Positions 26,131-46,626 of a stretch of 64,000 nucleotides of DNA are shown here, one piece after another (positions within the stretch are counted from its first letter, which is position 1; each line of letters begins with the position of its first letter). The stretch covers positions 981,246 to 1,045,245 of the forward strand of contig JBFLYH010000002.1 of the NCBI GenBank assembly GCA_040756875.1, read 5' to 3'. Position numbers and translations under genes: made by a program. The DNA is from a candidate division FCPU426 bacterium. Its GTDB lineage: Bacteria > Oederibacteriota > JAAXVQ01 > JAUVAV01. The notes beneath the pieces were generated by a model. That model did no database searches. It was not told where the DNA came from and was given only the letters and a program-made list of their open reading frames with translations.

Positions 26131-27456
26131 GTGCCTGAATCTTTCTCCGCCAGACAATTAATCGGTTGCGCCCTGGCTATCGGGCTGCTGCTTACAGGCT
26201 GCCGCGGCGCCACCCAGGCCCCGGCCTGGTCCCAGCGCTCCCTGATCGCCGGCCCTGAAATCCTCGTCCGTCTCTGGCGCAAAACCCCCTTCACGCAAGT
26301 GCAGCTCTCCTGGGACGGCACGCCGCTGCTGGCGGTGGATGCCAACGGAGAAATCATCCCCCTGCCGCAGGTCAACCGGCTCTATTTCTACCAGCGCGGC
26401 GAGCAGGTGGCCCTGGCATTCAAAGCCGGCCGCAAGGCGGCCCGCGAAGCCCAGGCGTACTCCTCGCTGGTGCTGCGGGTCCCGGGATCCGAGGTCAAGG
26501 CGTTCACGGTGTTGATCCCGGAATACGGCCGGCGGCGCAACTACGGCGCCCAAGCCGTGAGCCTGTCCGTGAAATACGGGCACTTGGCGCTGATCAACCA
26601 TCTGCCGCTGGAAATGTACCTGGCGCGCGTGCTGCCCGAGGAAATGGATCCGGAGCATTTCACGCTGGAGGCGCTCAAAGCCCAGGCCGTGGTGGCGCGC
26701 ACCTGGTCCCTGACCAATCTCAACCGGCACGCCCGCTATGGGTATCATTTTTGCGACGGGCCCCACTGCCAGGCCTACCGCGGCCGCAAGCGGGTGTCCG
26801 GCCGGGCCGAGGACGCGGTGAAGATGACCCTGGGCGAAGTGGTGCTCTCCGGCGGCGAGCCGGCCGAGGCGTTTTACCACAGCACCTGCGGGGGCAACAC
26901 GGCGTTCGTGGAAGACGTATGGCCCGGGGCCCGGCTTCCGTATCTGAGGCGCGTCGAGGACCGCTTCCGCCCCGGTCAGCGCGCCTACTGCGCCCATTCC
27001 CCCTATTCACGCTGGACGCTGTGGACTTCGCTCCGGCACGTGGAGCGGGTATTGAAACGCCGCCAGGCGATCGCCGCCGAAACCAATCTGCTGGACGTCA
27101 AAGTGGACGCGGTCAACCGTTCCGGCCGCGTGCTCAGGATTTGGCTGGCCACAGACCGCGGCGAATTGACACTGGGCGGGGAGTCCTTTCGCGCGTGGCT
27201 GAACGAGGAGTTCGGGCGAAAGCTCCTGAGCACGTTTTATTCCATCAGGGTGGAGGACGGGCAGTTTAAGCTGGAGGGGAAAGGCCTGGGACACGGGGTC
27301 GGCATGTGCCAATGGGGCGCCCGGGGCATGGCCCAGCTCGGTTTTTCCTACCAGGACATCCTACAGCATTACTTTCCGGGGACCACGATCGGCCGGTTCG
27401 AGGGGGCGGCCGTGGAACCCGGGGCGACCACGGTGAATTCGCACGCCGGGAAGTAG
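26131..27456 (+). CDS. SpoIID/LytB-domain protein (putative peptidoglycan-acting lipoprotein)
   Basis: GTG start at 26131; lipobox LLTGC; SpoIID/LytB blocks HSTCGGNTAFVEDVW and GHGVGMCQWGARGMA. Confidence 0.7.
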   Translation: MPESFSARQLIGCALAIGLLLTGCRGATQAPAWSQRSLIAGPEILVRLWRKTPFTQVQLSWDGTPLLAVDANGEIIPLPQVNRLYFYQRGEQVALAFKAGRKAAREAQAYSSLVLRVPGSEVKAFTVLIPEYGRRRNYGAQAVSLSVKYGHLALINHLPLEMYLARVLPEEMDPEHFTLEALKAQAVVARTWSLTNLNRHARYGYHFCDGPHCQAYRGRKRVSGRAEDAVKMTLGEVVLSGGEPAEAFYHSTCGGNTAFVEDVWPGARLPYLRRVEDRFRPGQRAYCAHSPYSRWTLWTSLRHVERVLKRRQAIAAETNLLDVKVDAVNRSGRVLRIWLATDRGELTLGGESFRAWLNEEFGRKLLSTFYSIRVEDGQFKLEGKGLGHGVGMCQWGARGMAQLGFSYQDILQHYFPGTTIGRFEGAAVEPGATTVNSHAGK

Positions 27457-29621
27457 CGGGGCGTGCGGGTTACCTGCAGGGGCGAACGCGAACGGCGGGC
27501 CGATCCCATGGGCGCCACTTTCAGGTTCACCTGATACCGGCCGGCCGGAAGGCCCGGCGGCACTGCCAGCTGATAAATTTCCTCCAGATTGCCGGGCGCG
27601 TAGGCCCACGAGGGCGGGGGCCAGTAACCCAGGCGCCGGACCGCTTTCCAGGGCCGGCGCAGGGTTCCGGAAACGGACGGCTGGATCCAAAAATACACCA
27701 CCCATTGTTCGCCGTTGGGCGCGGGCAGAAATTGCCAGCGCAAGGAAACAGTCAGCACGGAATCCAAACCCTCCGAAGCGGCCGGCGGCTGCACGCCGGC
27801 TGCCACCAGGCGCATGGGTCCTGCCGTCTCCAGCGGAGACGGGGTTTTGGCCGGGCCCAGGCCTGATTCGCCCCAGACCGGGCCGCGGGCCACGGGAAAC
27901 GGTTCAACGTGATAGGCTGAAAACCGCCGGTTGGTTCCGTCCGGGCCGTTCACTAAATAGCCTCCATCCTCCATTGCCAATAATCTGAAGCTTTGCAGAA
28001 AGTATTCCCAAGCCGGAGAGGACAGTTTGGGCCTGGCCAAGACCACCACCGGTTTTCCCGCCGACACCTGTTGGCCGAGTTCCCGGTTCCAGGCGGCCCA
28101 TTTGCGCCAGGCCTTGCCTTTTTCCGCAGCGCGGGCGCCGGCGGCAGCCGGCCAGGGTTTGGACAGAGGTTGCAGCAGCAAATCCGGACGCACGCCTTTG
28201 CGGGTTTGCAGCAACAAAGGCAGCAGCCCCTGCTGCATGTCCGGAAAAACCACGATGGCGGATTCGGGCAGGCTTTTCATCCCGCGGCCGACTTCGTCCA
28301 CGTCGGAAATCCGGGGGCCGGATGCCGCTTCCGGCCATCCCTGCAGCAACATCAGCACCGGGGCCAGGGCCACCAGGCTCATGCCGATCCAGGTGGGCTT
28401 GAGACGCATGCCCAGGCTCAAGCGGTGGTCGCCCTGCCCCAGCACGGTCAGGACATACTGCAGGGCTTCCAAACCCAGCCAGGGGCCGGCCATGGCCAGC
28501 CCCAGCATCACGTCCTCGCTTTGCCGCAGGGGCAGCAGCAGCAAACCCGCCAGGGAACAGACGATCAGAAGCGCCAGGAACTGGCGTCCCGGCAGGTTGA
28601 TTTCCTCGGTTACGCGCAGCGGGGTTTTGAGAAACAACCGGCGCAGGTTGGCGGCCAGCCCCAGGCCGGCCAAGGCCCAGGAAAAAACGGGAAAATGCCG
28701 CAGCCAGACGGACCAGACCGTCGACCAAGGTCCCTGCGGGGCAGCAGGGGGGGACCCGTGCGACTGGAGCTGGGTCAGGAAGCCCTGCCAGGCGTGAAGG
28801 TTCAGGGCCGGGCCGAGCGGCTGGAAATGATCCGTGTTGATGAAGACGTGATCCGCAGTCAAGCGCAGGGGCAGGTACAGATAGGGCAGCAAGGCGCCAA
28901 CCAGGGCCGCGGCCACGGCCTGGCCGTACATCCAGGCCTGCACGCGTTGGCGGGGGAGCCCCAGCACCAACCCCAGGAGCAGGGCCGAGGCTGCCCAAGG
29001 AAGCAAGCCCAGGGATTGGGAAGCCGTGGCGCCCAATAAAGCGGCCCAGGCCGTGAGGCGCCAGACGGACACCGGGTGACGGCCGGGCGTGAGCAGACCC
29101 AGCGTTAAGTACACGCCAACAGCCAACAGCCAAAGGTGGAAGGACATCGGGCCGATGCGCAAGCCGGCCTGCCAGACCGGAAAAAACCAAAAACAGGACA
29201 AAGCCGTGGCCAGGGAGACGAAGGGCGGAAACAACAGGCGGCGCGCGATCAAATAAACGAACAGGCAGGTTCCGGAGCCGAACAGCAGGCTGAGCAGGCG
29301 GTACCGCCACAGCTCTTCGCCCAAGGGCAGCACGACGGACAGGAACTTGGCGCTGAGCAGATACAACGGATAGCCCGGAAAACGGACCACGCCCAGCGTG
29401 CTCGCGCCCAGCACCCATTCGGCCTGGCCGCCGGCCCACGAGCTTGTGGCCAGCCAGGGCCAGGAAGTCAGCAAGGGCAGGAAAAAAGCCAGCAGGCCGA
29501 ACCAGCCGTCGGGTTTAAGGAAGAAAATCGTCTGATCCACCCGTTCCGGGCGAGAGGGTGCGTACACGAGCAGCAAGCCTCCGCGGAGCCTGAGCCGGTG
29601 ACGGCGTACGCTCCAGAGCAT
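27369..29621 (-). CDS. DUF2723-like polytopic membrane protein (GT-C-fold glycosyltransferase-like)
   Basis: Only supported minus-strand gene; 750 aa, N-terminal half strongly hydrophobic with LGVVRFPGYPL motif; start uncertain (alternative GTG at 29567 with GGAGG SD). Confidence 0.6.
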   Translation of the reverse strand: MLWSVRRHRLRLRGGLLLVYAPSRPERVDQTIFFLKPDGWFGLLAFFLPLLTSWPWLATSSWAGGQAEWVLGASTLGVVRFPGYPLYLLSAKFLSVVLPLGEELWRYRLLSLLFGSGTCLFVYLIARRLLFPPFVSLATALSCFWFFPVWQAGLRIGPMSFHLWLLAVGVYLTLGLLTPGRHPVSVWRLTAWAALLGATASQSLGLLPWAASALLLGLVLGLPRQRVQAWMYGQAVAAALVGALLPYLYLPLRLTADHVFINTDHFQPLGPALNLHAWQGFLTQLQSHGSPPAAPQGPWSTVWSVWLRHFPVFSWALAGLGLAANLRRLFLKTPLRVTEEINLPGRQFLALLIVCSLAGLLLLPLRQSEDVMLGLAMAGPWLGLEALQYVLTVLGQGDHRLSLGMRLKPTWIGMSLVALAPVLMLLQGWPEAASGPRISDVDEVGRGMKSLPESAIVVFPDMQQGLLPLLLQTRKGVRPDLLLQPLSKPWPAAAGARAAEKGKAWRKWAAWNRELGQQVSAGKPVVVLARPKLSSPAWEYFLQSFRLLAMEDGGYLVNGPDGTNRRFSAYHVEPFPVARGPVWGESGLGPAKTPSPLETAGPMRLVAAGVQPPAASEGLDSVLTVSLRWQFLPAPNGEQWVVYFWIQPSVSGTLRRPWKAVRRLGYWPPPSWAYAPGNLEEIYQLAVPPGLPAGRYQVNLKVAPMGSARRSRSPLQVTRTPRYFPACEFTVVAPGSTAAPSNRPIVVPGK

Positions 29622-29904: not shown

Positions 29905-29933
29905 TTGACAAGGCCATGACCCCCGACTATAAT
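29905..29933 (+). promoter_or_regulatory. consensus sigma70-type promoter TTGACA-17-TATAAT
   Basis: Perfect -35 (29905-29910), 17-nt spacer, perfect -10 (29928-29933); about 280 nt upstream of the YYY gene. Confidence 0.55.
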
Positions 29934-30212: not shown

Positions 30213-32618
30213 GTGACCGGTATTTTCGTGTGGTGGTTGTTGATCACAATCATGGGGCTGGCTGTTGTCCCGATCGCGTTCCGGGTTTTTCCGTTTCTTC
30301 CTGACCGGGGATATGCGTTTTCCAAACCCTTGGGGCTGGTGCTGGTCGGGCTGCTGACCTGGTGGATCGGGCAGGTGCATTTTTCAGTCCTTACCATTCT
30401 CCTGGCATTCGGGCTGATCGCCGGCCTGTCGTATTGGCTGTGGGTCCGCTCGGCCGCGGAGTTCCGTTCCCTGCTGTCCGAGCGGCTCGGGTTGATCGTG
30501 GCGGTGGAACTGTTTTTCGCGGTTCTCTTCCTCCTTTTCTGCTGGTTCCGCATGTACAACCCGGACATCATCGGCACCGAAAAATTCATGGACCTGGCGT
30601 TTCTCAATTCGCTCTCCCGCGCCACGTCGTTTCCGCCGCCGGACCCGTGGATGGCCGGCTCGAAATTTTTCATCAGCTACTATTATTTCGGCTACCTGCT
30701 CATGGCCATTCTGCTCCGCCTGTCGGCCGTGGCGCCGGCCGTGGGCTTCAATCTTTCCCTGGGCATGCTGTTCGCGCTCGCCGGGATCAGCACGTTCGGC
30801 GTGCTGTACAACCTCACGCGGCGCCTGAGCGCGGGCTTTGGCGGCTGGGCGCTGATCTACCTGATCGGCAATCTCGACGGGTTCAGGCAGGTGCTCGCCA
30901 CCAAAAGCATCGCCAGCTTCAACTGGTGGACGCCGTCGCGCGTCATCCCCGACACCATCAACGAGTTTCCGTTTTTCTCCTTTCTCCTCGGGGACATGCA
31001 TCCGCACATGCTGTCCATCCCCGTGGTCATGCTGACCCTGGGGTTCACGCTGAACCAGCTCAAATCCATGAACCGCGAGCCGAACTTCCGCGAGCCGGAG
31101 CAGCTTGCGACTACGCTGCTCTGGGGCCTGCTGATCGGGGCGCTGGGGTTCGCCAACAGCTGGGACCTGCCCACCACCTTCGGGCTGGCAGGGGCGGCGT
31201 TTCTGCTGCAGCAGTTGCGTTTCAAGCCGCGCCTGGCTGACCTGCCCTGGCGGCAGTGGGGGCTGGGCCTGGCGCTGATGCTGGGCGCCATGTTCGTGCC
31301 GTACCTGCCCTTTTATTTCCACTTCCACAGCCAGGCCAAAGGCCTTGCCTGGACCACGCAGAACACCCGGTTGGGGGATTTTCTGCTCCTCTTCGGCGTG
31401 TTCGCCTATCTCGGCCTGACCTTTCTCCTGGCCCGATACCATGCCTGGTTTTTGGCCGTGCTGTCCCGTCCGCAGGCCGCCTCCGGGGAAGGCAAGGCCG
31501 CCAAAGCCAAAGCCAGCCGTTTCTGCCCGCAGTGCGGGCATACGCTGCGCGAAGGCAAGCGCATTTGCGGCCAATGCGGGTACCAGACGGCGGGCGGAGG
31601 GTCTGAACAGGAATCTTCGCTCCTGTTGCGGCCCGTGGAAGAAACGCCGGAATGGCTGCGCGGGCTGTTCCTGTTCCTGCTGCAGCCCGTGGCGCGCTGG
31701 CGCCAGGGCCGGGGCGCGGCCCTGATCACAGCCGGCGTGCTCGCGGCGGCGGTCGGCGGCGCGCTGGTGAAAGGCCTCTTTTTCTCCACGCCGGGCAATC
31801 CCGCGCCCGTGTTCCTCGGCATCATGATTTTCGCGCTGGCGGCCGCCACCCTGCTGCTGTTCGCCCGCGTGGACAAGCCGGAGACAGTGTTCGCCCTGCT
31901 GCTGCTGGCCACGGCCCTGGCGCTGTTCATGGGCTGTGAAGTGCTGCATATCAACGACACCTTCAATCCGCCGCTGGACAGGATGAACACGGTTTTCAAG
32001 TTTTACTACCAGGCCTGGTTCCTGCTGGGCATCGCCGGCGTCTACGGCGTTTTCTGGACCTGGAAGTATTCGCTGCGCCACGCGAACCTCAAGGTGGTCT
32101 GGCTGTCGGGCCTGGCCCTGCTGCTGGCCGCGAGCCTGGTTTATCCTTACGCGGCCGCGGGCGTCAAGACCAACCGGTTTGCCACCCTCCCGACCCTGGA
32201 CGGCTCGGCATACCTGAATCAGGCGTACCCGGCCGACCGCGCGGGCATCGAATGGCTGCGCCGTTCGGTGGCCGGCAATCCCGTGGTGCTGGAAGCCACG
32301 GGCGGCGAATATACGGATTTTGCCCGCGTGTCCACGTTCACGGGCCTGCCCACGGTCCTGGGCTGGGCCGGCCACGAACTGCAGTGGCGCGGGAACTACG
32401 ACGAACCCGGCCGGCGGATTCCGGACATCGACACGCTCTACGGCTCTTCGGACGTGGCGGCCACTCAGGCCCTGCTGGACAAATACCAGATTACTTACGT
32501 TTTTGTCGGCACCCTGGAGCGGCAAAAATACCCGGAAGAAGCGCTGGCGAAATTCACCCAGTTGATGGACGTGGCGTTCGAACACCCCGGCGGCGTGCGG
32601 ATCTACCGCCGGCGGTGA
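30213..32618 (+). CDS. YYY-motif polytopic membrane protein (DUF2298 / TIGR03662-like) with inserted zinc ribbon
   Basis: GTG start; 801 aa; FISYYYFGYLL motif; CPQCG...CGQCG insertion; many TM helices. Confidence 0.65.
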   Translation: MTGIFVWWLLITIMGLAVVPIAFRVFPFLPDRGYAFSKPLGLVLVGLLTWWIGQVHFSVLTILLAFGLIAGLSYWLWVRSAAEFRSLLSERLGLIVAVELFFAVLFLLFCWFRMYNPDIIGTEKFMDLAFLNSLSRATSFPPPDPWMAGSKFFISYYYFGYLLMAILLRLSAVAPAVGFNLSLGMLFALAGISTFGVLYNLTRRLSAGFGGWALIYLIGNLDGFRQVLATKSIASFNWWTPSRVIPDTINEFPFFSFLLGDMHPHMLSIPVVMLTLGFTLNQLKSMNREPNFREPEQLATTLLWGLLIGALGFANSWDLPTTFGLAGAAFLLQQLRFKPRLADLPWRQWGLGLALMLGAMFVPYLPFYFHFHSQAKGLAWTTQNTRLGDFLLLFGVFAYLGLTFLLARYHAWFLAVLSRPQAASGEGKAAKAKASRFCPQCGHTLREGKRICGQCGYQTAGGGSEQESSLLLRPVEETPEWLRGLFLFLLQPVARWRQGRGAALITAGVLAAAVGGALVKGLFFSTPGNPAPVFLGIMIFALAAATLLLFARVDKPETVFALLLLATALALFMGCEVLHINDTFNPPLDRMNTVFKFYYQAWFLLGIAGVYGVFWTWKYSLRHANLKVVWLSGLALLLAASLVYPYAAAGVKTNRFATLPTLDGSAYLNQAYPADRAGIEWLRRSVAGNPVVLEATGGEYTDFARVSTFTGLPTVLGWAGHELQWRGNYDEPGRRIPDIDTLYGSSDVAATQALLDKYQITYVFVGTLERQKYPEEALAKFTQLMDVAFEHPGGVRIYRRR

Positions 32619-32702
32619 TCGCTGTGTATTGCCCCGGTGAGGAGCTCTCCGGGGTGACGTTGCCGGAACGACAAATTGAGTGAATATCGAAGGAGGCTCG
32701 GC

Positions 32703-34691
32703 GTGAACTGCCCGAACTGCGGCGCGGAAAACCCCGCCACCAACCTGTTCTGCGACTCGTGCGGGACCAAGCTGGTCAAACGAGACGCAGAAAAGCAGAA
32801 GAAAAAGCACATTCCCGAAGGGAGGGGCGTTCAGGTGAACACCCCTGCTCAAACCAAATCCTACCTGCCGGCCGAACCCGTAAAGCCGGCGTTGTCCCTG
32901 ACCGCCGTTCCGCTCGAAACCCTGGCCTGGGCCGTGGTCTTCGCGGTGGGCGCCTGGCTGCTGTTTTTCCAACTGGGCATGAAGCCCCTCCACCACGACG
33001 AGAGCCTGCACGCCTATTACGCCTGGGAGCTGTTCAAGGGCATGGGCTACAAGTACAACCCCATGATGCACGGCCCCTTCCTGTTCCACGCCAATGCCCT
33101 CATGTATTTCCTGTTCGGCGCCTCGGATTACACCTGCCGCATCATGCCCGCGCTCGCGGGCCTGACGGTGCTGGTGGTCACGTACTTCCTGCGCCCCTAT
33201 CTGGGCCGGACCGGCGCCCTGTTCACGGCGGCCATCATCGCCCTGTCGCCGTCCTTTACGTACTTCGGCCGGTTCATCCGCAACGACATTTACATTGCCG
33301 CGGATTCCATGCTCATGATTTACGGTTTTTTCCGCTATCTGGACACGCGCAAGCCCCGCTTTCTCTACCTGGCCGCCGTCGGCCTGGGCCTGGCGTTTTG
33401 CACCAAGGAAGTCACCTACATCAACGGCGCGATTTTCGTGACGTTCATGTTTTTCCGCTGGCTGTGGGAGTACACCATGCGCCCCGGCGCGGGCGAGAGC
33501 CGCTTCCTGCCGGCGCTGCAGGACCTGCTTAAACAGAGGAAGCCGCTGTGGGTTTCAGCCGGCATATTCTTCGGCCTGGTGCTCGTGCTCTACACCACCG
33601 TGTTCACCAACCCCAAGGGCTTCCTGGACGCGTTCACCGCTTCGCTGACCTATTGGCTGGGGCAGCACGAGGTGCAGCGCGGCAGCCAGCCGGTCTACTT
33701 CTACGCCGGGTTGATCCCCCTGTACGAAACCCTGACCACCCTGGGCGCGATCGGCGCCCTGGTTTACTACAGCTTCCTCAAGGACCGGGCCCACCGCGTC
33801 TGGCGCCTGTCCGCCTACCTGATCCTGGCCGCGGCCTGGTGGCTGTTCGCCTCGCAGGGCAACGAGACCTTCGGCCTGATATTCTCGCTGCTGCTCGTCA
33901 CGCTGGGCGTGGGTATGCTGGCGTATTTTTCGTTCGCCGAGGGCAATACGTTCGTCACGTTCCTGCAGTTGTGGACCCTGGCGGCTTTTTCGGATTATTC
34001 CTTCGCGGGCGAGCGCATGCCCTGGCTGATCCTCCACCCCCTGCTGCCCATGACGCTTTTGACCGGGTTTTGGCTGGGGGAACTGTGGAACCGCTTCCAG
34101 CGCCAGCGGGCCTGGCTGCTCGCCGTCTTTACCGCGGGCGCCGTGCTCATGCTGCACAACGCCAGCCTGGTGAACTTCTACGGCGGCGGGGCGAACCCCG
34201 CGGAGCTCCTGGTGTACGTGCAGTCCTCGACCGACGTCAAGCAGGTGGTGCGGCAGCTCACCAATATGTCCAAGCGCCTGACCGGCGGGCTGGAGATGAA
34301 GATCACCTGCGAGGATTACTGCTCCTGGCCTTTCGCCTGGTACCTGCGCGATTTCAAGTTCGTGGGGTATCCCAAGTTTACGGCCACCCAGTCGCCGGGC
34401 TCGATCGAGGAAAACCCCGTGATCATCACCGGCGTGGAAATGGCCGCGCCCGGGCACGATGACCGCGTGGCCGAGCTCCTGGCGGAGAAGTACGTGGCCC
34501 AGCGCTACAAATTGCGCGTGTGGTGGGCCCCGGACAGCCGCGCGTTTTTTGACGACACCTTCGGCGGAAAACTGAAGAAGATCTGGAAATTGGTGGTGTA
34601 CAAGGAGCCGTGGAGCGGGCTCGGGTCCTACGACATGATCGTGTACGTGCGCAAGGACCTGGCCCATTTGTACTGGAGCCACGCGGAGTAA
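32703..34691 (+). CDS. TIGR03663-like membrane protein (PMT/ArnT-like GT-C N-terminus) with N-terminal zinc ribbon
   Basis: Start moved to GTG 32703 (AGGAGG SD 6 nt upstream); CPNCG...CDSCG; DE dipeptide (HHDESLH) and HGP tripeptide (MMHGPFLFH). Confidence 0.6.
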   Translation: MNCPNCGAENPATNLFCDSCGTKLVKRDAEKQKKKHIPEGRGVQVNTPAQTKSYLPAEPVKPALSLTAVPLETLAWAVVFAVGAWLLFFQLGMKPLHHDESLHAYYAWELFKGMGYKYNPMMHGPFLFHANALMYFLFGASDYTCRIMPALAGLTVLVVTYFLRPYLGRTGALFTAAIIALSPSFTYFGRFIRNDIYIAADSMLMIYGFFRYLDTRKPRFLYLAAVGLGLAFCTKEVTYINGAIFVTFMFFRWLWEYTMRPGAGESRFLPALQDLLKQRKPLWVSAGIFFGLVLVLYTTVFTNPKGFLDAFTASLTYWLGQHEVQRGSQPVYFYAGLIPLYETLTTLGAIGALVYYSFLKDRAHRVWRLSAYLILAAAWWLFASQGNETFGLIFSLLLVTLGVGMLAYFSFAEGNTFVTFLQLWTLAAFSDYSFAGERMPWLILHPLLPMTLLTGFWLGELWNRFQRQRAWLLAVFTAGAVLMLHNASLVNFYGGGANPAELLVYVQSSTDVKQVVRQLTNMSKRLTGGLEMKITCEDYCSWPFAWYLRDFKFVGYPKFTATQSPGSIEENPVIITGVEMAAPGHDDRVAELLAEKYVAQRYKLRVWWAPDSRAFFDDTFGGKLKKIWKLVVYKEPWSGLGSYDMIVYVRKDLAHLYWSHAE

Positions 34692-34747: not shown

Positions 34748-35704
34748 ATGCGTCAGCAGGAAAAAGTTGCGGCGATTGTGTTGGGTGCCAGCGTCGTGGT
34801 TTTGGCGGTCGCCATTTTCTTCGGTTTGCAGCGCGGCCGCGACGGCAACGCCAAACCCGGCGGCCAGGCCAACCCCATGGCCGGCGGCGACCGGGGCAAG
34901 GCGTCCGGGCAGTTGTGGGACCCGCGCGGTGTGGCCGTGGACGCCAAGGGCTTCGTGTACGTGGTGGATTCGAGCAACCACCGCATCCAGAAGTTCGACG
35001 CCGAAGGCAAGTTCGTGGCCAAGTGGGGGCAGGAAGGGCAGGGCGACGGCGAGTTCAAGACGCCGGGCGGCATCGACGTGGGGCCGGACGGGAACGTGTA
35101 CGTGGCGGACACCTGGAACCACCGGATACAAAAGTTCGACAACCGGGGCAAGTTCCTCAAGCAGTGGCCGGGCGAGGGCGGGTTCTGGGGGCCGCGTGAC
35201 GTAGCCGTGGATTCCAAAGGCTTCGTGTACGTGACGGACACGGGCAACCGCCGCATCCAGAAGTTCACCGGCGACGGCCAGTTCGTCAAGATGTGGGGGC
35301 AGAAAGGCTCGGGCCCCAACGACTACGACGAGCCCTTCGGCATTAAAGCCGACGACAAGGATTTGCTGTATATCTGCGACCGCCTCAATTTCCGCATTCA
35401 GGTCTGCGACACCGAGGGGCGCCTGGTCCGTTCCTGGCCCGTGGACGGCTGGCAGAAGGAACAGTTCTTCATGGAGCCCTACCTCTCCATCGACAACCGC
35501 CGCGACCGGGTGTACGTGACCGACCCGACCAAGCACCGCGTGCTGGTGTACGACCGCCAGGGCGGATTCAAGCAGCACCTGCTGCAGGACCCGGCCACCC
35601 AGCAGGCGTTTTCCACGCCCCTGGGCGTGGCGGTGAACGAGGAAACCGGCATGATTTATATCACGGATATGACGGCCAACCGGCTGTATAAAATCCAGCC
35701 TTAG
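34748..35704 (+). CDS. NHL-repeat beta-propeller protein, N-terminal membrane anchor
   Basis: Repeated blocks GVAVDxxGxVYVxDxxNHRIQKF; N-terminal TM helix. Confidence 0.75.
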   Translation: MRQQEKVAAIVLGASVVVLAVAIFFGLQRGRDGNAKPGGQANPMAGGDRGKASGQLWDPRGVAVDAKGFVYVVDSSNHRIQKFDAEGKFVAKWGQEGQGDGEFKTPGGIDVGPDGNVYVADTWNHRIQKFDNRGKFLKQWPGEGGFWGPRDVAVDSKGFVYVTDTGNRRIQKFTGDGQFVKMWGQKGSGPNDYDEPFGIKADDKDLLYICDRLNFRIQVCDTEGRLVRSWPVDGWQKEQFFMEPYLSIDNRRDRVYVTDPTKHRVLVYDRQGGFKQHLLQDPATQQAFSTPLGVAVNEETGMIYITDMTANRLYKIQP

Positions 35705-35715
35705 GAGGGATGAAC

Positions 35716-36828
35716 ATGGCCACCAAACGCAAACCAAGCCGGACGCAAACCAAGCCGGCGGCGCGCAAATCCGCGGCGGCGCGCAAGCCTGCTGGCGCCG
35801 CACTCAAAACCAGCGCGGCCAAAGCCGCCGCCGGACGCAAACCCGCCCACCGCGAAAGCCATAAAACCGCCTCCGGCGGCAACCGCGGCCTGGTGTTTTT
35901 CGGCGCGATCGCCGTGCTGGTCGTGGCCATGGCCGTGGTCGCAAAACTCAGGCAGGGGCCGCCGGTGAAGCTCCTGCCCGCGGAGGTGCTGGGCACTTAC
36001 ACCGCGGCGGACAACGCCGCCGGCGCCCTGTCGTCGCCGCGCGGGATCGCCGTGACGCGTGAAGGGGAAGTGGTGGTGGCTGATCTGGGCAACCACCGGA
36101 TCGTGGCTTTTGCGCCGGACGGCAGCGTGGCCGACACCTGGGGCCGCAAGGGCACGGCCGCCGGCGAGTTCAACGAGCCGTCGGGCGTGGCCGTGGACAG
36201 CCGAGGCGACTTCTACGTGGCCGACACCTGGAACGGACGCATCCAAAAATTCTCCCCCCGCGGCGAGTACTTCGGCGAAATCACCTCGAAAACCGGGAAC
36301 TTCTATTCGCCGCGCAACGTGGCCGTGGACAGCCATGGGTTCGTGTACGTGGCGGACACGGGCAATTCCTGCGTGAAGAAATTCGACACGGACGCCAACC
36401 TGGTGAAACGCTGGGGCGAATACGGCTCCGGGCACGACCGGTTCCAGGAAACCTTCGGCCTGGCCGTGGACGCGGCCGGCCAGGTGTACGTGGGCGACGC
36501 GGGCAACCGCCGCATCAAAATTTACACCAGCGACGGCAAGTTCCTGCGCGACCTGCGGGTCAAGGGCTGGCAGAGCGGGGTGGGCTGGCCCATGCTGGCG
36601 CTGGACGCGCAGGGCCGGGTTTACGCCACGGACGTGCAGCACAACATGGTATGGATTTACAGCCGCGAGGGCAAGTACCTGGGGAGCTTCGGCAACCAGC
36701 CGGGCAAGGAGCTGTTCTCCTCGCCGCTGGGGATCGCCATCGGGCCGGACGGCAGCGTGTACGTGTCGAACATGAACCGCGGCGAGATTCTGAAACTCAA
36801 AGGCTTGGCCCCGGAGCCGCCGAAATAG
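35716..36828 (+). CDS. NHL-repeat beta-propeller protein, basic N-terminus and membrane anchor
   Basis: Start at ATG 35716 (SD spacing); NHL blocks (GIAVTREGEVVVADLGNHRIVAF...). Confidence 0.75.
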   Translation: MATKRKPSRTQTKPAARKSAAARKPAGAALKTSAAKAAAGRKPAHRESHKTASGGNRGLVFFGAIAVLVVAMAVVAKLRQGPPVKLLPAEVLGTYTAADNAAGALSSPRGIAVTREGEVVVADLGNHRIVAFAPDGSVADTWGRKGTAAGEFNEPSGVAVDSRGDFYVADTWNGRIQKFSPRGEYFGEITSKTGNFYSPRNVAVDSHGFVYVADTGNSCVKKFDTDANLVKRWGEYGSGHDRFQETFGLAVDAAGQVYVGDAGNRRIKIYTSDGKFLRDLRVKGWQSGVGWPMLALDAQGRVYATDVQHNMVWIYSREGKYLGSFGNQPGKELFSSPLGIAIGPDGSVYVSNMNRGEILKLKGLAPEPPK

Positions 36829-36876
36829 GGCGCGCCCGGGCATCGTGGTCATCCCCGAGGGATGAGGAGGGACGGC

Positions 36877-37923
36877 ATGGCAACAGCAAGCGACAAACGG
36901 AAGCCGAAAAAGACAGCGGCCCAGGGAAGCAAAGCGGCCACCCGGGCCAGACAGGCCAAAAGCCAGGCGGCGATTCCCGCCCCGGTTGCGGCCTCCGCGC
37001 CCGCGGCGCCGCCCCGGGCTGCCAAACCGGGCTTGCCGCACGGAATCATTCTGGGCGTTTTGCTGGCCCTGGTGGTTTTGGTCAGCGTGGAGGTCGTGAT
37101 CCTCATGAAGGACAAGGCGGACCGGAAGCGCATTCTGCGCGTGGTGGAAGTGGTGCCGGAACGCGGCGGGCCGCCGGACATGCCGGGCAAGTTCTGGGGG
37201 CCGTACCAGGTCAAGGTCAACGAACAGGCGGGCCGCTTGGCCCTGGTCGACCACGCGTTCAACAAGGTCGTGCTGTGGGACCTGGCCACCAAGAAGCACG
37301 TGGTCGACGTCAACGCCGCCTTGCTGGGACGGGAGCAGTTCGTTCCAAAGGACGTCGATGTGGCCGATGACGGCGACTATTACATCCTCGACCACTCTGA
37401 CATGACGGTCAAACGGTTCTCGGCCCAGAACCAGCTGGTCCAGCAGTGGAAGATTCCGGAGAGCGTCAGCCTGACGGCCGGCAAGGACCGCGATGTGTAC
37501 GTGCTGGACGGCAGGGCCCAGGAGATCGTCCATTATCAAAACGACGGCACCGAACTCGGGCGTTTCGGCAAGGGTAAGTTGAAAAACGGCCTGTTGATGG
37601 ACACGGATGAGGCCGGCAACATCTACGTGGTGGATTCCGGCTACAACGGCATGGTGGTTTTCTCGAAGGCGGGCAAGCACCTGTATTCCTGGCCGATCAA
37701 GGAAGTGAAGCCCTTGCAGATGTCGCGCATGGCGGCGGTCAACAACCAAGTGTATTTCTACGACCTGGTCAACAACAACGGGATCATCAGAGTGTACACC
37801 CCCAAAGGCCGCCTGGCGTGGGATATCGGCCCGCAGCGCACAGAATCATTTGACGTCGGCCGCTCGGGGACGGTGTACATGTCCGGCAACGACGGCATCG
37901 TCATTCAGCAAATCGAGAAGTGA
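36877..37923 (+). CDS. membrane-anchored beta-propeller-like protein (divergent NHL-like paralog)
   Basis: Start at ATG 36877 (RBS GAGGAGGGA); N-terminal basic region and TM; repeated YVLD/YVVD blocks. Confidence 0.5.
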   Translation: MATASDKRKPKKTAAQGSKAATRARQAKSQAAIPAPVAASAPAAPPRAAKPGLPHGIILGVLLALVVLVSVEVVILMKDKADRKRILRVVEVVPERGGPPDMPGKFWGPYQVKVNEQAGRLALVDHAFNKVVLWDLATKKHVVDVNAALLGREQFVPKDVDVADDGDYYILDHSDMTVKRFSAQNQLVQQWKIPESVSLTAGKDRDVYVLDGRAQEIVHYQNDGTELGRFGKGKLKNGLLMDTDEAGNIYVVDSGYNGMVVFSKAGKHLYSWPIKEVKPLQMSRMAAVNNQVYFYDLVNNNGIIRVYTPKGRLAWDIGPQRTESFDVGRSGTVYMSGNDGIVIQQIEK

Positions 37924-37937: not shown

Positions 37938-40900
37938 GTGGCGGATAAAATCAAAGCGGCCTTCGAGGCCTTGAAAAAAAGCGGAATCAATGTTTCTTTG
38001 CGGTTCGTGTGGCTGGCGCTGGCCGTCGGGCTGATTGGCCTGGGCCAGGTCAATTTCTTCTCGCGCAATCTGGCCGCGGGCATGGGTCTGACCCTGCTGG
38101 GCGCCGTCGTGCTCCTGCTGGCGGCGGGCGAGAGCGGCAAACAGGCCGCCCTCCTGCAGCGGGCGGGGAAGTGGTTTGGCCGGGCGGCTGAGCGCTTTTC
38201 CGCGTTCGCCCGCGCGCGCCAAAAGGCCGAGGATCTCGCCACCGGAACCGCCGGCCAGCCGGCCGCCAAGACGAATTGGAAACCGCTGAAAACCCAGTTC
38301 GAGGAAACCCGGCGCTCCTGGCTGGCCTTTGCCGAGGAAACCACGTTCACGGCGCCGAAGAACCTGGTCATGATCCTCGGCATTCTCTTGATTCTGGCCG
38401 GCCAGCCCTTCCTCGTCGCCGAGAAGTTCGTCCTGGCCCTGATCCTCATCATTCCCGGCTTGTACCTGCTGGTCAACGTCATTTTCGCCCCCCAGGAACG
38501 GTACGTCATCGGCCGGCTCGACCACATCATCCGGACCGTTTTATTCCTGATTCCGGGCGTGGGCTTGATCATCCTGGGATGCATGATTCATTTCCAGGCG
38601 GTCAGCCTGAGCCTCCCCCGCGAAGCCCTGGGCTTGGGGCTGAACGCGCTCGGCATTTTCATCATCTTCTCCCTGTTTCCGAGGATCATCCCCGATTCGT
38701 TCCCTGAGTCAGGCGATCCGGTGGATCAGGTGACCGGCCGGGCCGCGAACCGGACGCAGGTATTCATGAAAATCGGACTGGTGGCCCTGGCCCTGGTGTT
38801 TTTCCTGGCTTCCAAGCATTATGCCAACCCGGCTACCCTGAACCTTTCCGCGCTGATGGCCCTTCTGTTTCTCACGGCGATGAGCCTGTCTTTTCCCTGG
38901 AGCGCCGAACCTCGCGACCAAACCAGCGGCGAAAACATCGTCCTGAAATGGCTGGTGAAATACCTGCGCCTGGCGGCTTTCGGCCTGGGCCTGTATTGGG
39001 CCTACCGCGGGCAGGTGCTGATCTCGCACGAACAGCTTTATCCGGGGCTGTACCGGTTCCTGGCCGCGGCCATCGCCATGTGGATCGCCCTGCGCGAACC
39101 GGACCCCAAGTACGTGGATGAATTGAAGGAAAAGCCCCTGGCCTGGTACTGGGAGGCGCTGGCCCTGGTGGCCATCCTGTCGGCCGCCACCTGGGTCCGT
39201 GTCCATCTCCTGAAGGACATACCTTACGGGATCGAGTGCGACGAGGCGGGCGCCGGCGCGCACGCCGTCGATGTTTTGCAGAACCACTTCAGTTCGCTGA
39301 CGATCCATCCCAGCGGACGCCCGCTGTTCATGCTGCTGGACAAAGTGGTCACCATCCGCTTCTTCGGCATCGACAACATCGGGATGAAGCTGGGCGCAGC
39401 CATCTGGGGGACCGCGGGCGTTTTCTGCGTTTATCTCATGACCCGGTTTTTGTTCGGCACGCGCGCGGCCCTGGCCACGGCAGCCCTGATGGCCTGCTCG
39501 CGCTGGCACATCCATTTTTCGCGCTACGGCTGGGCGAACACCCTGATGCTGGTGCTCCAGATCACGGGATTCTATTTCATCGCCAAGGGCATCCAGACGC
39601 GGAACAAATGGTTCTTTTTTCTCGCGGGCGTGGGCCTGACCCTGTCCATCCACACCGAGACCGCGGCGCGCATGGTGCCCTTCATGTGCCTGGGCCTGCT
39701 GGTGTACTTCGTCCTGTTTTACAAGCGGTTTTTCCGGCGCAATTGGCAGACCCTGCTGGTGTTCCTGCTCGGGGTGTGGCTGGCCGGCGCCAGCCTGTTC
39801 CTGTTTTGGGTGAAGCAGCCGCGCTACCTGTTCAACCGCGTGTACGAAGTGTCGGTGTTTTCCGGCGACGCCAACGCGCCTCGGAACCTGGTCAAGGGGC
39901 TGGTCGAAAGCACCAAGCTCAGCCTCACGCAGATGAACTGGCACGGGGACACCCGGACCCGCCACAACGGCGGCCTTTCGGGCGAGCCGGTGCTCGATTT
40001 CTGGTCGGCCATCCTCTTCGCCCTGGGGTTCGGCTTTTCGCTGTATTACTGGAGGCGGTTCCGATACACCATACTGCTAATGTGGTTTTTCGGGTCCATG
40101 GCCGCCTCGATCTTCGCCCTGGAGGCGCCGCAATCCCACCGGGCCTTTGGCGCGCTTCCGCCGATTTTCATGCTGATGGGCGCGTTCATCGACCGCTCCC
40201 GCAGGCTGCTGCGGGAGACGCTGGGCAAGCCCGGCACCCTGGCCGGCGGCCTGGTGCTCCTGCTGCTCCTGGTTCCCATCGCCAAGATCAATTACAAAAA
40301 ATACTTCGACGCGTATCCGGGGTTCGACACGGCCTGCACGGCCGCGGCCAAGTACATGGGGCGCGTCTGGCCGAAGGCGGAGCAGGTCATCATGTCCGCT
40401 TATTTGTGGATCGGCCATCCGCCCTTCGAGCTGTACGCCCGCGGGATATCCGGCCACTTTTACTTTGCGGCCTCCGAAGCGGTTCCGTTCCGCCAGCAGA
40501 CCGACCGGGATGTGAATTACACCCTGATCCTGGAATATCCGGAGATCATGCCGACCATCCAATGGTACTATCCGGAAGGCGAATATTCCGAGGAGACGCA
40601 CGTCCGCTACGGGCTGCAGTACCGCGGCTGGGGCGTGAAACACGAGATCATCCAAAAATACCGCGGCCTGAACGCTTCGTACTGGTCGAATCCCTATTGG
40701 GCCGGGGAGCCGAAACTGCGGCGCAAGGACGCGGATTTGAACCTGACCTTCGACCAGACCACCTGGCCCTGGAACGGCCCGGGGTCGGTGAAATGGGAAG
40801 GGACCGTGTTCATCCCCCGCGAAGGGAAGTACGTTTTCTACCTGTACGGCACCAATGAGGTCGAAGTCAAGGTCGGCTCCCAGGTGCACCTCCGCGCCGG

Positions 40901-41537
40901 CAACAAGCAGGAACAAACCTACGAAACGTATATGGCCGGCGGCTTGCACCGGCTGGACGCCCGGGCGGTTCACAGCGCCCCGGGCGAAAGGATCCTGTTC
41001 GCCTGGAGCTGCAGCCAGGATGTGCCGTACTACCTCTATGACGAAGCGCACCAGAACCGGTTTGCCAAGGAGCCTGTCCCGAACACGCACCTGTTCACCT
41101 ACCCCGAACCCAAAGGGCTCCTGGCCACTTTTTATTACAAACCGGACTGGACCGGCGGGATCGCCCGGCAAGTGGTGGAACCCGCCCTGTTCTACTTGTG
41201 GATGGGGCCGCCGTACGGCCTTAACATGCCCTTCTCAGCGGATTGGAAAGGCTGGATCGACATCGAAAAACCCGGCACGTACCAGTTCGGCGTGGACTGC
41301 AGCGGGTACTCGGATGTCACGATCGACGGCATCCCGGTCGTCGTCCAGGGCGAGCCGCCTTTTTCCGGCGTTCCCCGCCTGCAGGGCCGCAATTCAGTCC
41401 AGCTGGCGGCCGGGCGCCATCCGGTGACTGTCCGCTGGTCGCAGCAGTACGGGCTGTTGTTCAGGTTCTGGTGGGTTCCGCCCGGCCAAAAGAAGGAAAT
41501 CGTTCCCGTTTGGGTTCTGACGCCTCAGGACAAGTAA
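37938..41537 (+). CDS. large GT-C-like membrane protein with two C-terminal PA14-like domains
   Basis: 1199 aa; polytopic N-terminal two-thirds with acidic loop motif GIECDEAG; C-terminal PA14-like beta-sandwich patterns. Confidence 0.55.
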   Translation: MADKIKAAFEALKKSGINVSLRFVWLALAVGLIGLGQVNFFSRNLAAGMGLTLLGAVVLLLAAGESGKQAALLQRAGKWFGRAAERFSAFARARQKAEDLATGTAGQPAAKTNWKPLKTQFEETRRSWLAFAEETTFTAPKNLVMILGILLILAGQPFLVAEKFVLALILIIPGLYLLVNVIFAPQERYVIGRLDHIIRTVLFLIPGVGLIILGCMIHFQAVSLSLPREALGLGLNALGIFIIFSLFPRIIPDSFPESGDPVDQVTGRAANRTQVFMKIGLVALALVFFLASKHYANPATLNLSALMALLFLTAMSLSFPWSAEPRDQTSGENIVLKWLVKYLRLAAFGLGLYWAYRGQVLISHEQLYPGLYRFLAAAIAMWIALREPDPKYVDELKEKPLAWYWEALALVAILSAATWVRVHLLKDIPYGIECDEAGAGAHAVDVLQNHFSSLTIHPSGRPLFMLLDKVVTIRFFGIDNIGMKLGAAIWGTAGVFCVYLMTRFLFGTRAALATAALMACSRWHIHFSRYGWANTLMLVLQITGFYFIAKGIQTRNKWFFFLAGVGLTLSIHTETAARMVPFMCLGLLVYFVLFYKRFFRRNWQTLLVFLLGVWLAGASLFLFWVKQPRYLFNRVYEVSVFSGDANAPRNLVKGLVESTKLSLTQMNWHGDTRTRHNGGLSGEPVLDFWSAILFALGFGFSLYYWRRFRYTILLMWFFGSMAASIFALEAPQSHRAFGALPPIFMLMGAFIDRSRRLLRETLGKPGTLAGGLVLLLLLVPIAKINYKKYFDAYPGFDTACTAAAKYMGRVWPKAEQVIMSAYLWIGHPPFELYARGISGHFYFAASEAVPFRQQTDRDVNYTLILEYPEIMPTIQWYYPEGEYSEETHVRYGLQYRGWGVKHEIIQKYRGLNASYWSNPYWAGEPKLRRKDADLNLTFDQTTWPWNGPGSVKWEGTVFIPREGKYVFYLYGTNEVEVKVGSQVHLRAGNKQEQTYETYMAGGLHRLDARAVHSAPGERILFAWSCSQDVPYYLYDEAHQNRFAKEPVPNTHLFTYPEPKGLLATFYYKPDWTGGIARQVVEPALFYLWMGPPYGLNMPFSADWKGWIDIEKPGTYQFGVDCSGYSDVTIDGIPVVVQGEPPFSGVPRLQGRNSVQLAAGRHPVTVRWSQQYGLLFRFWWVPPGQKKEIVPVWVLTPQDK

Positions 41538-41539
41538 GC

Positions 41540-42817
41540 ATGGCCGCGGAACGGAAGGAAGGCTTGGTCGGCGTCTCCCTGCTGCTGTTCCTGCTGACCA
41601 TGGGGAACAGCGTCTGCGGCTTTGCGCTCCACGCCGTGGCCAGCCGCGTGCTGGGCCCGGAGGACTATGGCGCCTTCGTAAGCCTGCTGGCCCTGCTGAT
41701 GATCCTGGCCGTGCCCAGCCAGGCGGTGCAAATGATCGTCGCCAAACAGATCACGCTCGAGTTGATCCAGAACCAGCTGCGCCGCGCCGTCGTCCTGACC
41801 TGGCAGGCGGTGCGCTGGTCGGCGGCCGCCGGAATGCTGTTGTGGCTGGCCGTGACGCTCGCCCTGCCGGTCCTGAAATCCTTCCTGCACCTGCCTTCCG
41901 CGTCCCCCCTCCTGGCGGTCGGCGCCGCGATCGTCCTGACGCTGATCACCCCGGTGCTGCGCGGTTTTCTGCAAGGCACTCAGCGTTTCCAGGCTTTGGG
42001 CTGGAACTTCTTTTTAGAGGGCGTGGGGCGTCTGGCCTGGGGCGCACTGTTTCTGCTGGTGGGGTGGGGCGTCCTGGGCGCGGTCCTGGCCAGCGCCGCC
42101 GGCGCCTTGACGGCCGCGCTGATCGCCGTCTGGCTGCTGGGCGCCGCAGCCAAGGGCCTGGACCGGAACGGCCCGGAGCAGCCGGCCGCCCGGACGTCGC
42201 TGGGGCTGCAGGATTACGGCTGGCTGGTGCTGGTCACCATGGCCGCGTTTTTCGCCCTGTCCAACCTGGACGTGCTGATCGTCAAACACCTCTTTCCGCA
42301 GGCCGACGCCGGATATTATTCGGCCGGTTCTCTGATCGGCAAGGCGTTTCTGTTCCTGCCCTACACCTTTGCCCAGGTCCTGTTTCCGAAAGCCAGCCGC
42401 CACCATGCCCTGGGCGAGAGCACCCTCTCCCTGTTGAACCGCAGCCTGCTGTACACGGCCGCGGCCCTGCTGCTGGGGATGATTGCGGTCTACGCGCTGG
42501 CGCCGGTCCTGCTGTCGGTGCTGTTCGGGCCGGAATACAACAATCCCACCACCCTGCGCATGATCCGCTATTTCGGCGCGGCCATGACGCCGCTGGCCCT
42601 GGTATACGTGATGATGCAGTACAGCCTGGCGCTTAAAAACGCCGAGTTGTCCCTGCTGATGCTGGCGGATCTTCCGGTCTTCATTATCCTGCTCATGACT
42701 CTGCCCCGCAGCCTGGAAGGCGTACTCCTGGCCATGGGCTTGAATTTCCTGATCCTGGCGGCGGCCGGCTACGCGGCCATCCGGGCCAAGGCGCAGCCCC
42801 TGGCCGCGAAAGCCTAG
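41540..42817 (+). CDS. polysaccharide/oligosaccharide flippase-like membrane protein (Wzx/MOP-like)
   Basis: ATG 41540, 3 nt after the previous stop; 425 aa, ~12 predicted TM helices. Confidence 0.5.
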   Translation: MAAERKEGLVGVSLLLFLLTMGNSVCGFALHAVASRVLGPEDYGAFVSLLALLMILAVPSQAVQMIVAKQITLELIQNQLRRAVVLTWQAVRWSAAAGMLLWLAVTLALPVLKSFLHLPSASPLLAVGAAIVLTLITPVLRGFLQGTQRFQALGWNFFLEGVGRLAWGALFLLVGWGVLGAVLASAAGALTAALIAVWLLGAAAKGLDRNGPEQPAARTSLGLQDYGWLVLVTMAAFFALSNLDVLIVKHLFPQADAGYYSAGSLIGKAFLFLPYTFAQVLFPKASRHHALGESTLSLLNRSLLYTAAALLLGMIAVYALAPVLLSVLFGPEYNNPTTLRMIRYFGAAMTPLALVYVMMQYSLALKNAELSLLMLADLPVFIILLMTLPRSLEGVLLAMGLNFLILAAAGYAAIRAKAQPLAAKA

Positions 42818-42830
42818 AGGGAGGCGGCGC

Positions 42831-44827: not shown

Positions 44828-45597
44828 ACCCGTTTAAACGGCTGCTCAAATGGTACGCGCCCATGGCCTTCGGCGACGGGTTGAACCGCTGCAATCAGCT
44901 GGCCCTGCGGCTGGCGCGGCGGGAGCCGTGGCAGCGGCTGCTGGATGTCGGCTGCGGTGACGGGGAACTGACCGCGAAATTCCTCGCGGGCGCGTCCGGC
45001 CGCCGGGCGGACGGCATCGAATACGTCGCCGCGCTGCACGAGGCGGCCGGACGGCGGGGGATCGCCTGCCGCAGCCTGGACGTCAACCTGCCGTGGACCG
45101 GCGTCGGCGATTCGGCCTACGACCTGGTGCTGTCCAGCCAGAACATCGAGCACGTGCACAACACGCGCCTGTACCTGGAGGAGTGCCGCCGCTGCCTGAA
45201 ACCCGGGGGGAGGCTGCTGGTGCTGACCGAAAACCTGGCCTCCTGGATCAACATCGGCGCGCTGCTGTTCGGGTGGCAGCCCTTCTCGACCACCAACATC
45301 GACGGCTGGAGCGTCGGCAATCCCTGCGTGTGGCACGCCGACGAGCCGAAGGACATGGCTTTCGTCGAGGAGCAGAAAAAGCACGGCGTGACCGGGACCA
45401 CCGGCCACATCCGGGTGTGGACCCGCGCCGGCCTGGCGGATCTCCTGAAACGCGTGGGCTTTGAGGATGTCCGGCTCTACGGACGGGGGTATTTGCCGTT
45501 TTGGGGCTGGCTGTCGGACTGCCTGAGCGCGCTGGACGGCCGGCACAGCCATTTTCTCGTCGCCAGCGCCCGGAAGCCGGGCGGAGCGCCGGCCTAA
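44824..45597 (+). CDS. class I SAM-dependent methyltransferase
   Basis: ATGA-coupled; SAM motif I LLDVGCGDGELT. Confidence 0.7.
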   Translation: MNPFKRLLKWYAPMAFGDGLNRCNQLALRLARREPWQRLLDVGCGDGELTAKFLAGASGRRADGIEYVAALHEAAGRRGIACRSLDVNLPWTGVGDSAYDLVLSSQNIEHVHNTRLYLEECRRCLKPGGRLLVLTENLASWINIGALLFGWQPFSTTNIDGWSVGNPCVWHADEPKDMAFVEEQKKHGVTGTTGHIRVWTRAGLADLLKRVGFEDVRLYGRGYLPFWGWLSDCLSALDGRHSHFLVASARKPGGAPA

Positions 45598-46623: not shown

Positions 46624-46626
46624 TCC

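Follow-up and report, generated by a model that had tools for sequence, protein, structure and literature searches.

Co-occurring candidate zinc ribbons on a neighbouring pair of YYY-family and Agl23-like GT-C membrane proteins in a glycan gene cluster of a candidate division FCPU426 bacterium

The DNA analysed here, referred to below as the window, is a stretch of 64,000 nucleotides (nt) from contig JBFLYH010000002.1 (positions 981,246 to 1,045,245, forward strand) of assembly GCA_040756875.1, which derives from a candidate division FCPU426 bacterium. It contains two co-directional open reading frames (ORFs), located at 30213-32618 (+) and, in the mechanical call, at 32676-34691 (+), whose products are membrane proteins that each carry a short four-cysteine motif of the zinc-ribbon type; this pair of ribbons is the subject of the present account. 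The first gene (30213-32618, +) encodes a protein of 801 amino acids (aa) with a predicted GT-C fold and a C-terminal globular domain that belongs to the YYY family (DUF2298, TIGR03662), and the second (32703-34691, +) encodes an Agl23-like GT-C protein (TIGR03663, PMT_2) of 662 aa when read from the GTG at 32703. The YYY protein scores 569.6 bits against TIGR03662 (curated cutoff 300.25) and 366 bits against DUF2298 (PF10060; cutoff 27.8), the TIGR03662 match being split into two stretches of which the best covers aa 3-413 and stops short of the loop that holds the ribbon. A protein 100% identical to it is encoded in a metagenome-assembled genome of candidate division FCPU426. The Agl23-like protein scores 297.6 bits against TIGR03663 (cutoff 126.25), with aa 85-560 aligned to profile positions 4-430 of 435, and also matches PMT_2 (51.3 bits); the current NCBI name of TIGR03663 is 'flippase activity-associated protein Agl23'. 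The adjacency of a TIGR03663 gene to a TIGR03662 gene, as found in the window, is typical for the family, and both genes were visible together in 76 of the loci compared below. The most likely start of the second gene is GTG 32703, TTG 32676 being an improbable one, since a GGAGG lies 6 nt upstream of the GTG and homologs begin with MNCPxCG; with this start the Agl23-like ribbon would begin at residue 3.

The YYYxG signature of the YYY protein, FISYYYFGYLL, is encoded at 30669-30701 (+; aa 153-163). Residues Y156, Y157, Y158, F159 and G160 are all present, and Y156, Y157 and G160 are invariant among 118 homologs. In the Agl23-like protein, HHDESLH (32991-33011) and MMHGPFLFH (33063-33089) lie in the first external loop (32991-33089, +); they contain the H-D-E-S-x-H (DE) motif and the H-G-P motif, by which the putative GT-C active site is marked. 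Residues H98, D99, E100, S101, H103, H123 and P125 are invariant among 117 sequences, as are R146, R190 and R193, and G124 is nearly so. The TIGR03663 family is characterised by an invariant DE dipeptide, an HGP tripeptide and conserved arginines near the N-terminus, all of which the Agl23-like protein possesses.

Each of the two proteins carries one ribbon of the form C-x2-C-x10-C-x2-C on flexible linkers. The YYY ribbon, CPQCGHTLREGKRICGQCG, lies at 31524-31580 (+; aa 438-456, with C438, C441, C452 and C455) within a Lys/Arg-rich loop insertion between two transmembrane helices (31464-31715, +; aa 418-501). This loop comprises about 80-100 residues in the YYY protein of the window, whereas in ribbonless Chloroflexota homologs it is absent or only 24-70 aa long. 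The Agl23-like ribbon, CPNCGAENPATNLFCDSCG, is N-terminal (32709-32765, +) and is separated from the first transmembrane helix (TM1) by a linker (32766-32912, +; aa 22-70) whose first part is Lys-rich; segment 1-70 holds 10 Lys or Arg residues, and residues 28-56 are predicted to be disordered, with a predicted local distance difference test score (pLDDT) below 50 in the AlphaFold2 model. The Zn_Ribbon_1 model (PF13240) scores 29.4 bits on the Agl23-like protein, above its cutoff of 25, and 23.5 bits (E 4.6e-5) on the YYY protein, just under it; the Agl23-like ribbon is also matched by the generic DZR and DUF7577 models. In the AlphaFold2 models beta-bridges are present at both ribbons, and pLDDT amounts to 87-89 for the Agl23-like ribbon and to 62-76 for the YYY ribbon, the flanks of the latter falling below 50.

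The four cysteines are invariant in 63 ribbon-bearing YYY homologs and in 92 Agl23-like ones, the Agl23-like ribbon being conserved in 92 of the 120 best homologs. Conservation extends beyond the cysteines: the YYY ribbons share the signature C-P-x-C-G-x-x-h-R-E-G-K-x-[IF]-C-G-x-C-G (R 95%, G 95%, K 98%), and the Agl23-like ribbons the signature C-P-K-C-G-x-x-N-P-x-x-N-x-F-C-[DE]-x-C-G-x-K-L (first N 99%, second N 97%, F 99%, [DE] 99%). Only two of the 38 candidate genes of the window, those of the pair, encode a CxxC...CxxC pattern, which together with the invariance of the cysteines in homologs argues that the ribbons did not arise by chance. A third ribbon-bearing gene or a ribbon-specific partner gene was found in none of the ten ribbon-bearing loci scanned, apart from an unrelated ORF with an N-terminal ribbon at the contig edge of locus L004. 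In a profile search of solved structures, the YYY protein gave no matches other than weak ones of its ribbon region to ribosomal protein eL37 (E ~0.09), which were rejected as non-significant.

The AlphaFold2 models of the YYY and Agl23-like proteins have pLDDT values of 92.7 and 90.4, respectively. In Foldseek comparisons the YYY model matched DPY19 (7zlh; 1.1e-6), AftA and STT3, and its C-terminal domain resembled the external globular C-terminal domain of AglB. The Agl23-like model matched ArnT (5ezm; 1.4e-6), STT3, ALG9/ALG12, Pmt4 and PglB. Because the models match GT-C enzymes, both proteins are predicted to adopt a GT-C fold, the TM-scores of these matches being modest (0.3-0.5). A profile search of solved structures detected no structure related by sequence to either the YYY or the Agl23-like family. 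Topology was derived from the AlphaFold2 helices and from charge counting, as Kyte-Doolittle window calls were fragmented and unusable. In the Agl23-like protein TM1 corresponds to aa 71-88 and the DE motif follows directly at aa 99-100. GT-C enzymes have a cytoplasmic N-terminus, and their first external loop carries an acidic motif at a short distance from TM1 (PMC6801728), so the N-terminal ribbon of the Agl23-like protein, with the DE motif right behind TM1, is placed in the cytoplasm. In the YYY protein D31, E123 and D144 are candidates for the acidic residue of the GT-C motif. Counting back from the AglB-like C-terminal domain, which was assumed to be extracellular, the ribbon loop is an odd number of helices (five) away; the ribbon loop holds 14 Lys or Arg residues, and the predicted inside loops hold 21 compared with three in the outside loops. 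The strongly conserved YYY motifs, EFPFF...GDMHPH, NSWDxP and D...RMNTVFKFYYQAW, are all on the predicted outside. Taken together, helix parity, the charge distribution read by the positive-inside rule and the topology of GT-C enzymes lead us to infer that both ribbons face the cytoplasm.

Much of the original prediction, which had been made from the sequence without database searches, is borne out by these results. All motifs that it quoted (YYYxG, both ribbons, HHDESLH and MMHGPFLFH) are found at the positions given above, both family assignments exceed their curated cutoffs, and the suggested GT-C-like nature of the proteins agrees with the models and their Foldseek matches. Alignments and models likewise place one ribbon in a loop of the first protein and the other at the N-terminus of the second, with the cysteine motifs between helices rather than in transmembrane segments and, judging from parity and charges, on the cytoplasmic side. 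With regard to the zinc-ribbon model, the expectation held for the Agl23-like protein, whereas the YYY ribbon fell just short of the cutoff.

For a comparison of gene neighbourhoods, loci were taken from genomes (80, centred on YYY homologs), from metagenomes (80, centred on Agl23 homologs) and from the surroundings of individually chosen proteins (eight) and were scored with hidden Markov models built from alignments made in this analysis, and the 76 loci in which both genes were visible and complete at the relevant positions were counted. Both proteins carried a ribbon in 20 of these and neither did in 56; not a single locus was discordant. When the YYY proteins were clustered, this result persisted at 90% identity (17 clusters with both ribbons, 54 with neither, none mixed), at 70% (12, 52 and none) and at 50% (5, 39 and none). 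Ribbon-bearing loci come from FCPU426, Goldiibacteriota and unclassified bacteria, and three subtypes of the ribbon occur among them. One YYY subtype has x9 spacing (C-x2-C-G-x-x-G-x-G-[RK]-x-F-C-G-x-C), and its partners are Agl23-like proteins of the '...NNFCEQC' type encoded on the opposite strand (L071, L088, L156 and L158). Two apparent cases of a ribbonless Agl23-like protein were rejected. P0128, beside a ribbon-bearing YYY protein, is a start-codon miscall with the ribbon VNCLKCGAENPAGNIFCDTCG upstream in frame, and in L093 the ribbon is located upstream and followed by an in-frame stop or frameshift. The L093 segment (18-130) thus encodes an intact Agl23-like ribbon with a stop or frameshift before the membrane domain, which represents an assembly error or a pseudogene. 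Locus L088 contains tandem Agl23-like paralogs (7465-9867 and 10001-12403), each with an N-terminal ribbon, that lie opposite a string of GT2, NHL, NHL, YYY and giant YYY genes; the pair therefore need not be adjacent or co-directional. Such giant YYY paralogs of 1400-2100 aa occur in most Chloroflexota loci and in some ribbon loci, upstream of the YYY gene of about 830 aa (e.g., L003, L009, L010, L013, L055, L056, L067, L087 and L088). All of the giants are ribbonless, and some hold two YYY copies or an N-terminal PMT_2 region. No giant YYY gene adjoins the pair in the window.

Loss of the ribbon was observed among close YYY paralogs. Several that lack it or retain only relics share 53-58% BLASTP identity with the window protein (P0024 56%, P0025 56%, P0027 53%), which is above that of many ribbon-bearing homologs. 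P0018 retains three of the four cysteines (CSRCESHVHDEKHISGKCG) and P0025 two (RPHCGSRLPDKECISENYG), and the ribbon is deleted in P0024 and in P0027-29. In the three contexts that could be read (P0024, P0025 and P0027) no Agl23-like or NHL gene is next to the YYY gene, and the neighbourhoods consist of GT2, LPG_synthase_TM and oxidase genes or of YceG, DUF5693 and pyruvyl-transferase genes. The ribbon thus appears dispensable for the YYY fold and to be retained only in the context of Agl23 and NHL genes. Read from the sequences in this way, the loss in unpaired paralogs speaks more strongly than any other observation against a role that is solely structural or topogenic.

The pair is followed in the window by three genes for membrane-anchored NHL beta-propeller proteins (34748-35704, 35710-36828 and 36862-37923, all +), which match Pfam NHL with 143.5, 139.8 and 22.6 bits. 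The gaps from the Agl23-like gene through the NHL genes are 56, 5 and 33 nt, and 14 nt separate the last of them from the next gene. In Chloroflexota the Agl23-like proteins carry no ribbon and have an NHL propeller fused to their C-terminus (fusion proteins P0188-P0238); a profile of this fused domain recognises the first two NHL proteins of the window as homologous, with 259 and 212 bits. Free NHL genes are found in 17 of the 20 ribbon loci and in none of the 56 ribbonless loci, whereas the NHL-Agl23 fusion is found in 40 of the 56 ribbonless loci and in none of the 20 ribbon loci. The free NHL proteins are anchored by an N-terminal transmembrane helix. Two of the three anchors in the window are preceded by long, histone-like tails rich in Lys, Arg, Ala and Pro that are predicted to be cytoplasmic (35710-35900 and 36862-37040), and basic tails of this kind recur in L083 (11034-11250 and 12219-12450), L087 (13644-13720) and L088 (14288-14170, minus strand). 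The first NHL protein of the window has a short conserved MRQQEK tail instead.

The genes around the pair and the propellers are, by their content, those of an envelope or protein glycosylation cluster. A candidate operon promoter, TTGACA-17-TATAAT, which agrees with the sigma-70 consensus at 12 of 12 positions, was found by consensus scan at 29905-29933 (+) in a divergent intergenic region of 590 nt. It lies about 280 nt before the YYY start, so that use of this site would imply a long 5' leader. On the other side of this region a ribbonless, TMEM260-like membrane protein of the GT-C type (750 aa; PF11028, 29.3 bits) is encoded at 27369-29621 (-). The next co-directional gene after the propellers encodes a ribbonless GT-C protein of 1199 aa with PMT_2 and PA14 domains (37938-41537, +), a gene type that recurs in the related clusters L083 and L087. 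The remainder of the cluster (41243-50878, +) comprises genes for a Wzx-like Polysacc_synt protein, GT2, GT4 and GT2 enzymes, a methyltransferase and a second GT-C protein with PMT_2 and PA14 domains; genes of these types are also located behind the NHL genes of L083 and L087. Five GT-C-type genes (TMEM260-like, YYY, Agl23-like and two with PMT_2 and PA14) are thus located within about 24 kb (27369-50878), and ribbons are present on two of them. A small GtrA-like flippase was not identified in the cluster.

Several features of the window outside the cluster were recorded. A gene with a SpoIID/LytB domain (26131-27456, +) and the TMEM260-like gene on the other strand share about 90 nt at the 3' end of the latter, and the true stop or start of one of the two may differ from the mechanical ORF. 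Directly after the cluster lies a giant ORF of 2259 aa (51157-57936, +) with good coding GC content at third codon positions and without a Pfam match at E<=0.001. In the last 8 kb of the window (56000-64000) the GC content declines from about 0.63-0.70 by way of 0.54, 0.47 and 0.42 to 0.37. The ORFs 58300-59364, 60149-60982 and 60992-62887 in this low-GC end have no Pfam match, and either a foreign island or a join in the assembly may be present here.

Family identity, fold, conservation of the ribbons, their co-occurrence and their loss in unpaired paralogs are directly supported by the data. The reading that we prefer, and that we hold to be about evenly poised between right and wrong, is that the ribbons would be co-inherited and cooperating cytoplasmic docking modules of a multi-subunit machine for envelope glycosylation. 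The YYY and Agl23-like genes would stand at the head of a long, co-directional operon for envelope glycosylation, as its first and second gene, and the ribbons may keep the two proteins together in one complex, possibly along with the basic tails of the NHL anchors; alternatively, both may attract a single shared factor from the cytoplasm, for instance the GT2 enzyme responsible for making the lipid-linked sugar. Docking is proposed because the ribbons appear to have been gained, kept and lost together and occur only where the NHL propellers are separate and membrane-anchored. A more specific version, according to which the ribbons, with or without the basic NHL tails, would be the cytoplasmic 'glue' of an undescribed YYY/Agl23-like/NHL machine and would replace the covalent Agl23-NHL fusion, is unlikely in our estimation. 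Cytoplasmic location, zinc binding and any physical interaction of the ribbons are what we infer beyond the observations. The original prediction had suggested a shared regulatory or partner-binding module. The absence of discordant loci and the decay in unpaired paralogs lend comparative support to a shared module, and the association is partly confounded by ancestry.

Several points weigh against the docking proposal. The association is strongly structured by phylogeny, with five ribbon clusters at 50% identity that possibly go back to a single gain, so that co-inheritance alone could yield most of the co-occurrence table. Agl23 genes of the FCEQC type are found without a YYY gene in the visible flank in L146, L154 and L164; contig ends account for most of these cases, L154 being not fully explained. 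The loss of the ribbon in YYY paralogs coincides with the loss of the whole Agl23/NHL neighbourhood and therefore cannot tell which partner matters. Ribbons of the PF13240 type decorate many unrelated bacterial membrane proteins, and we know of no function for this generic type. Finally, the topology was taken from AlphaFold2 secondary structure and charge counts, and the orientation of helices 2-171, which make up the N-terminal third of the YYY protein, is ambiguous, helix 159-171 being transmembrane or juxtamembrane; this ambiguity leaves the side of the ribbon loop unaffected.

The main rival to docking is that the two ribbons are independent, generic decorations, which might serve as folded plugs on the cytoplasmic side that fix the membrane orientation of the proteins or stabilise them, and that their co-occurrence reflects phylogenetic hitch-hiking in one clade. 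This would suit the fit of the Agl23-like ribbon to generic models (PF13240, DZR, DUF7577), the small number of ribbon clusters at 50% identity, and the flexible tethering of both ribbons, which make no confident contacts in the monomer models. A topogenic or stabilising need should, however, persist in the YYY paralogs that lack an Agl23 neighbour, and it is in these that the ribbon has decayed or vanished. The lack of discordance among the 76 loci, the strong conservation of non-cysteine surface residues (R-E-G-K in one ribbon, N-P-x-x-N-x-F in the other) and the ribbonless state of the other three GT-C proteins of the cluster also speak against it, so that this explanation is weakened by the data and is regarded as rather unlikely. 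A parallel role as zinc or redox sensors that switch both enzymes, without mutual binding, has little support and is judged quite improbable: although four-cysteine sites are generally sensitive to redox state and metals, and ribbons on both enzymes, in a compatible cytoplasmic position, would permit co-regulation, neither a sensor-type signature nor a linked regulator gene was found in the cluster, it is not obvious how a signal would pass along the long disordered linker of the Agl23-like protein to the membrane domain, and the anti-correlation with the NHL fusion would be left unexplained.

Zinc ribbons often bind nucleic acids, and binding of the two ribbons to nucleic acid or to the ribosome could couple glycosylation to the translation or secretion of its substrates. 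The weak eL37 matches to the YYY ribbon region and the histone-like tails of the NHL anchors point in this direction; shared CxxC spacing would be enough to produce matches of such non-significant strength, however, and this role, which likewise has little support, is considered highly improbable. Still more remote is the explanation that the cysteine motifs are extracellular or intramembrane and form disulfides instead of a zinc site. The ribbons are not hydrophobic and lie between rather than within helices, the ribbon loop and the predicted inside loops of the YYY protein are rich in Lys and Arg compared with its outside loops, and the N-terminus of GT-C enzymes, where the Agl23-like ribbon is located, is cytoplasmic (PMC6801728).

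Many uncultured bacteria (FCPU426, Goldiibacteriota and relatives) carry the pair in a conserved cluster with NHL propellers, GT-C proteins and GT2 and GT4 enzymes. The strictly co-occurring ribbons, predicted to be cytoplasmic, offer two experimental handles on the pair, and the alternation between ribbons with free NHL proteins and no ribbons with fused NHL domains is a testable evolutionary hint as to how the machine is held together. If the glue version were true, it would be the first assembly of GT-C enzymes mediated by zinc ribbons; if the docking model is wrong, the finding shrinks to a variation in the domain architecture of known families. No description of these ribbons was found in the literature searched for TIGR03662, TIGR03663, DUF2298 and zinc ribbons with GT-C proteins, and for the YYY/DUF2298 family the literature searched contained passing mentions only and no published function. 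As judged from the sequence comparisons, the pair belongs to known families and represents a variant of them, not a kind of its own. What is new is that the two ribbons are strictly paired, that the ribbon decays in paralogs without a partner gene and that ribbons and NHL fusion exclude each other; none of these features was described in the literature searched.

To our knowledge, the Agl23 family has been studied in one haloarchaeon only, where the choice between flippase and transferase is unsettled; for the Agl23-like protein of the window, the predicted GT-C fold and the invariant DE motif suggest transferase chemistry. Agl23 of Haloarcula hispanica has been reported to be a putative Dol-P-hexose flippase, and in liposomes M5GN2-PP-Dol was translocated by the protein in purified form (PMC11182771). 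The window protein resembles it in passing TIGR03663 and in having the DE and HGP motifs, but it is bacterial and is encoded beside free NHL propeller genes, and its N-terminal ribbon and disordered linker are absent from the archaeal and Chloroflexota members examined. The YYY protein, for its part, is a typical Chlor_Arch_YYY member of TIGR03662/DUF2298 with regard to its full-length match, its YYYxG signature, its single-copy form of about 800 aa and its TIGR03663 neighbour, and differs from the Chloroflexota and archaeal members in its loop with a ribbon of the R-E-G-K type.

Pairs of GT-C proteins acting as one complex are represented by yeast Pmt1-Pmt2 and mycobacterial EmbA-EmbB-AcpM, the latter of which includes AcpM as a cytoplasmic partner attached to the inner face; the two structures (6p25 and 7bvc) are among the fold matches of the Agl23-like protein. 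These complexes assemble via membrane and luminal domains and without zinc ribbons. Cytoplasmic zinc-binding domains serve in the assembly of membrane proteins elsewhere: those at the N-terminus of plant cellulose synthases (CesA) mediate dimerisation of isoforms, and the zinc finger of the Caulobacter membrane protein ZitP binds PopZ. These belong to other zinc-finger classes, are attached to unrelated membrane domains and have no sequence relationship to the ribbons described here, so that the analogy is mechanistic only. With respect to the pathway as a whole, the closest framework is that of the three-component systems of extracytoplasmic glycosylation, which consist of a GT2 polyprenyl-phosphate glycosyltransferase, a flippase and a GT-C enzyme (PMC11127046). 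The cluster of the window likewise has GT2 genes, a Wzx-like Polysacc_synt gene and several GT-C genes, but differs from these systems in the number of its GT-C-type genes, which is five, in its NHL propellers and in the ribbons carried by two of its GT-C proteins.

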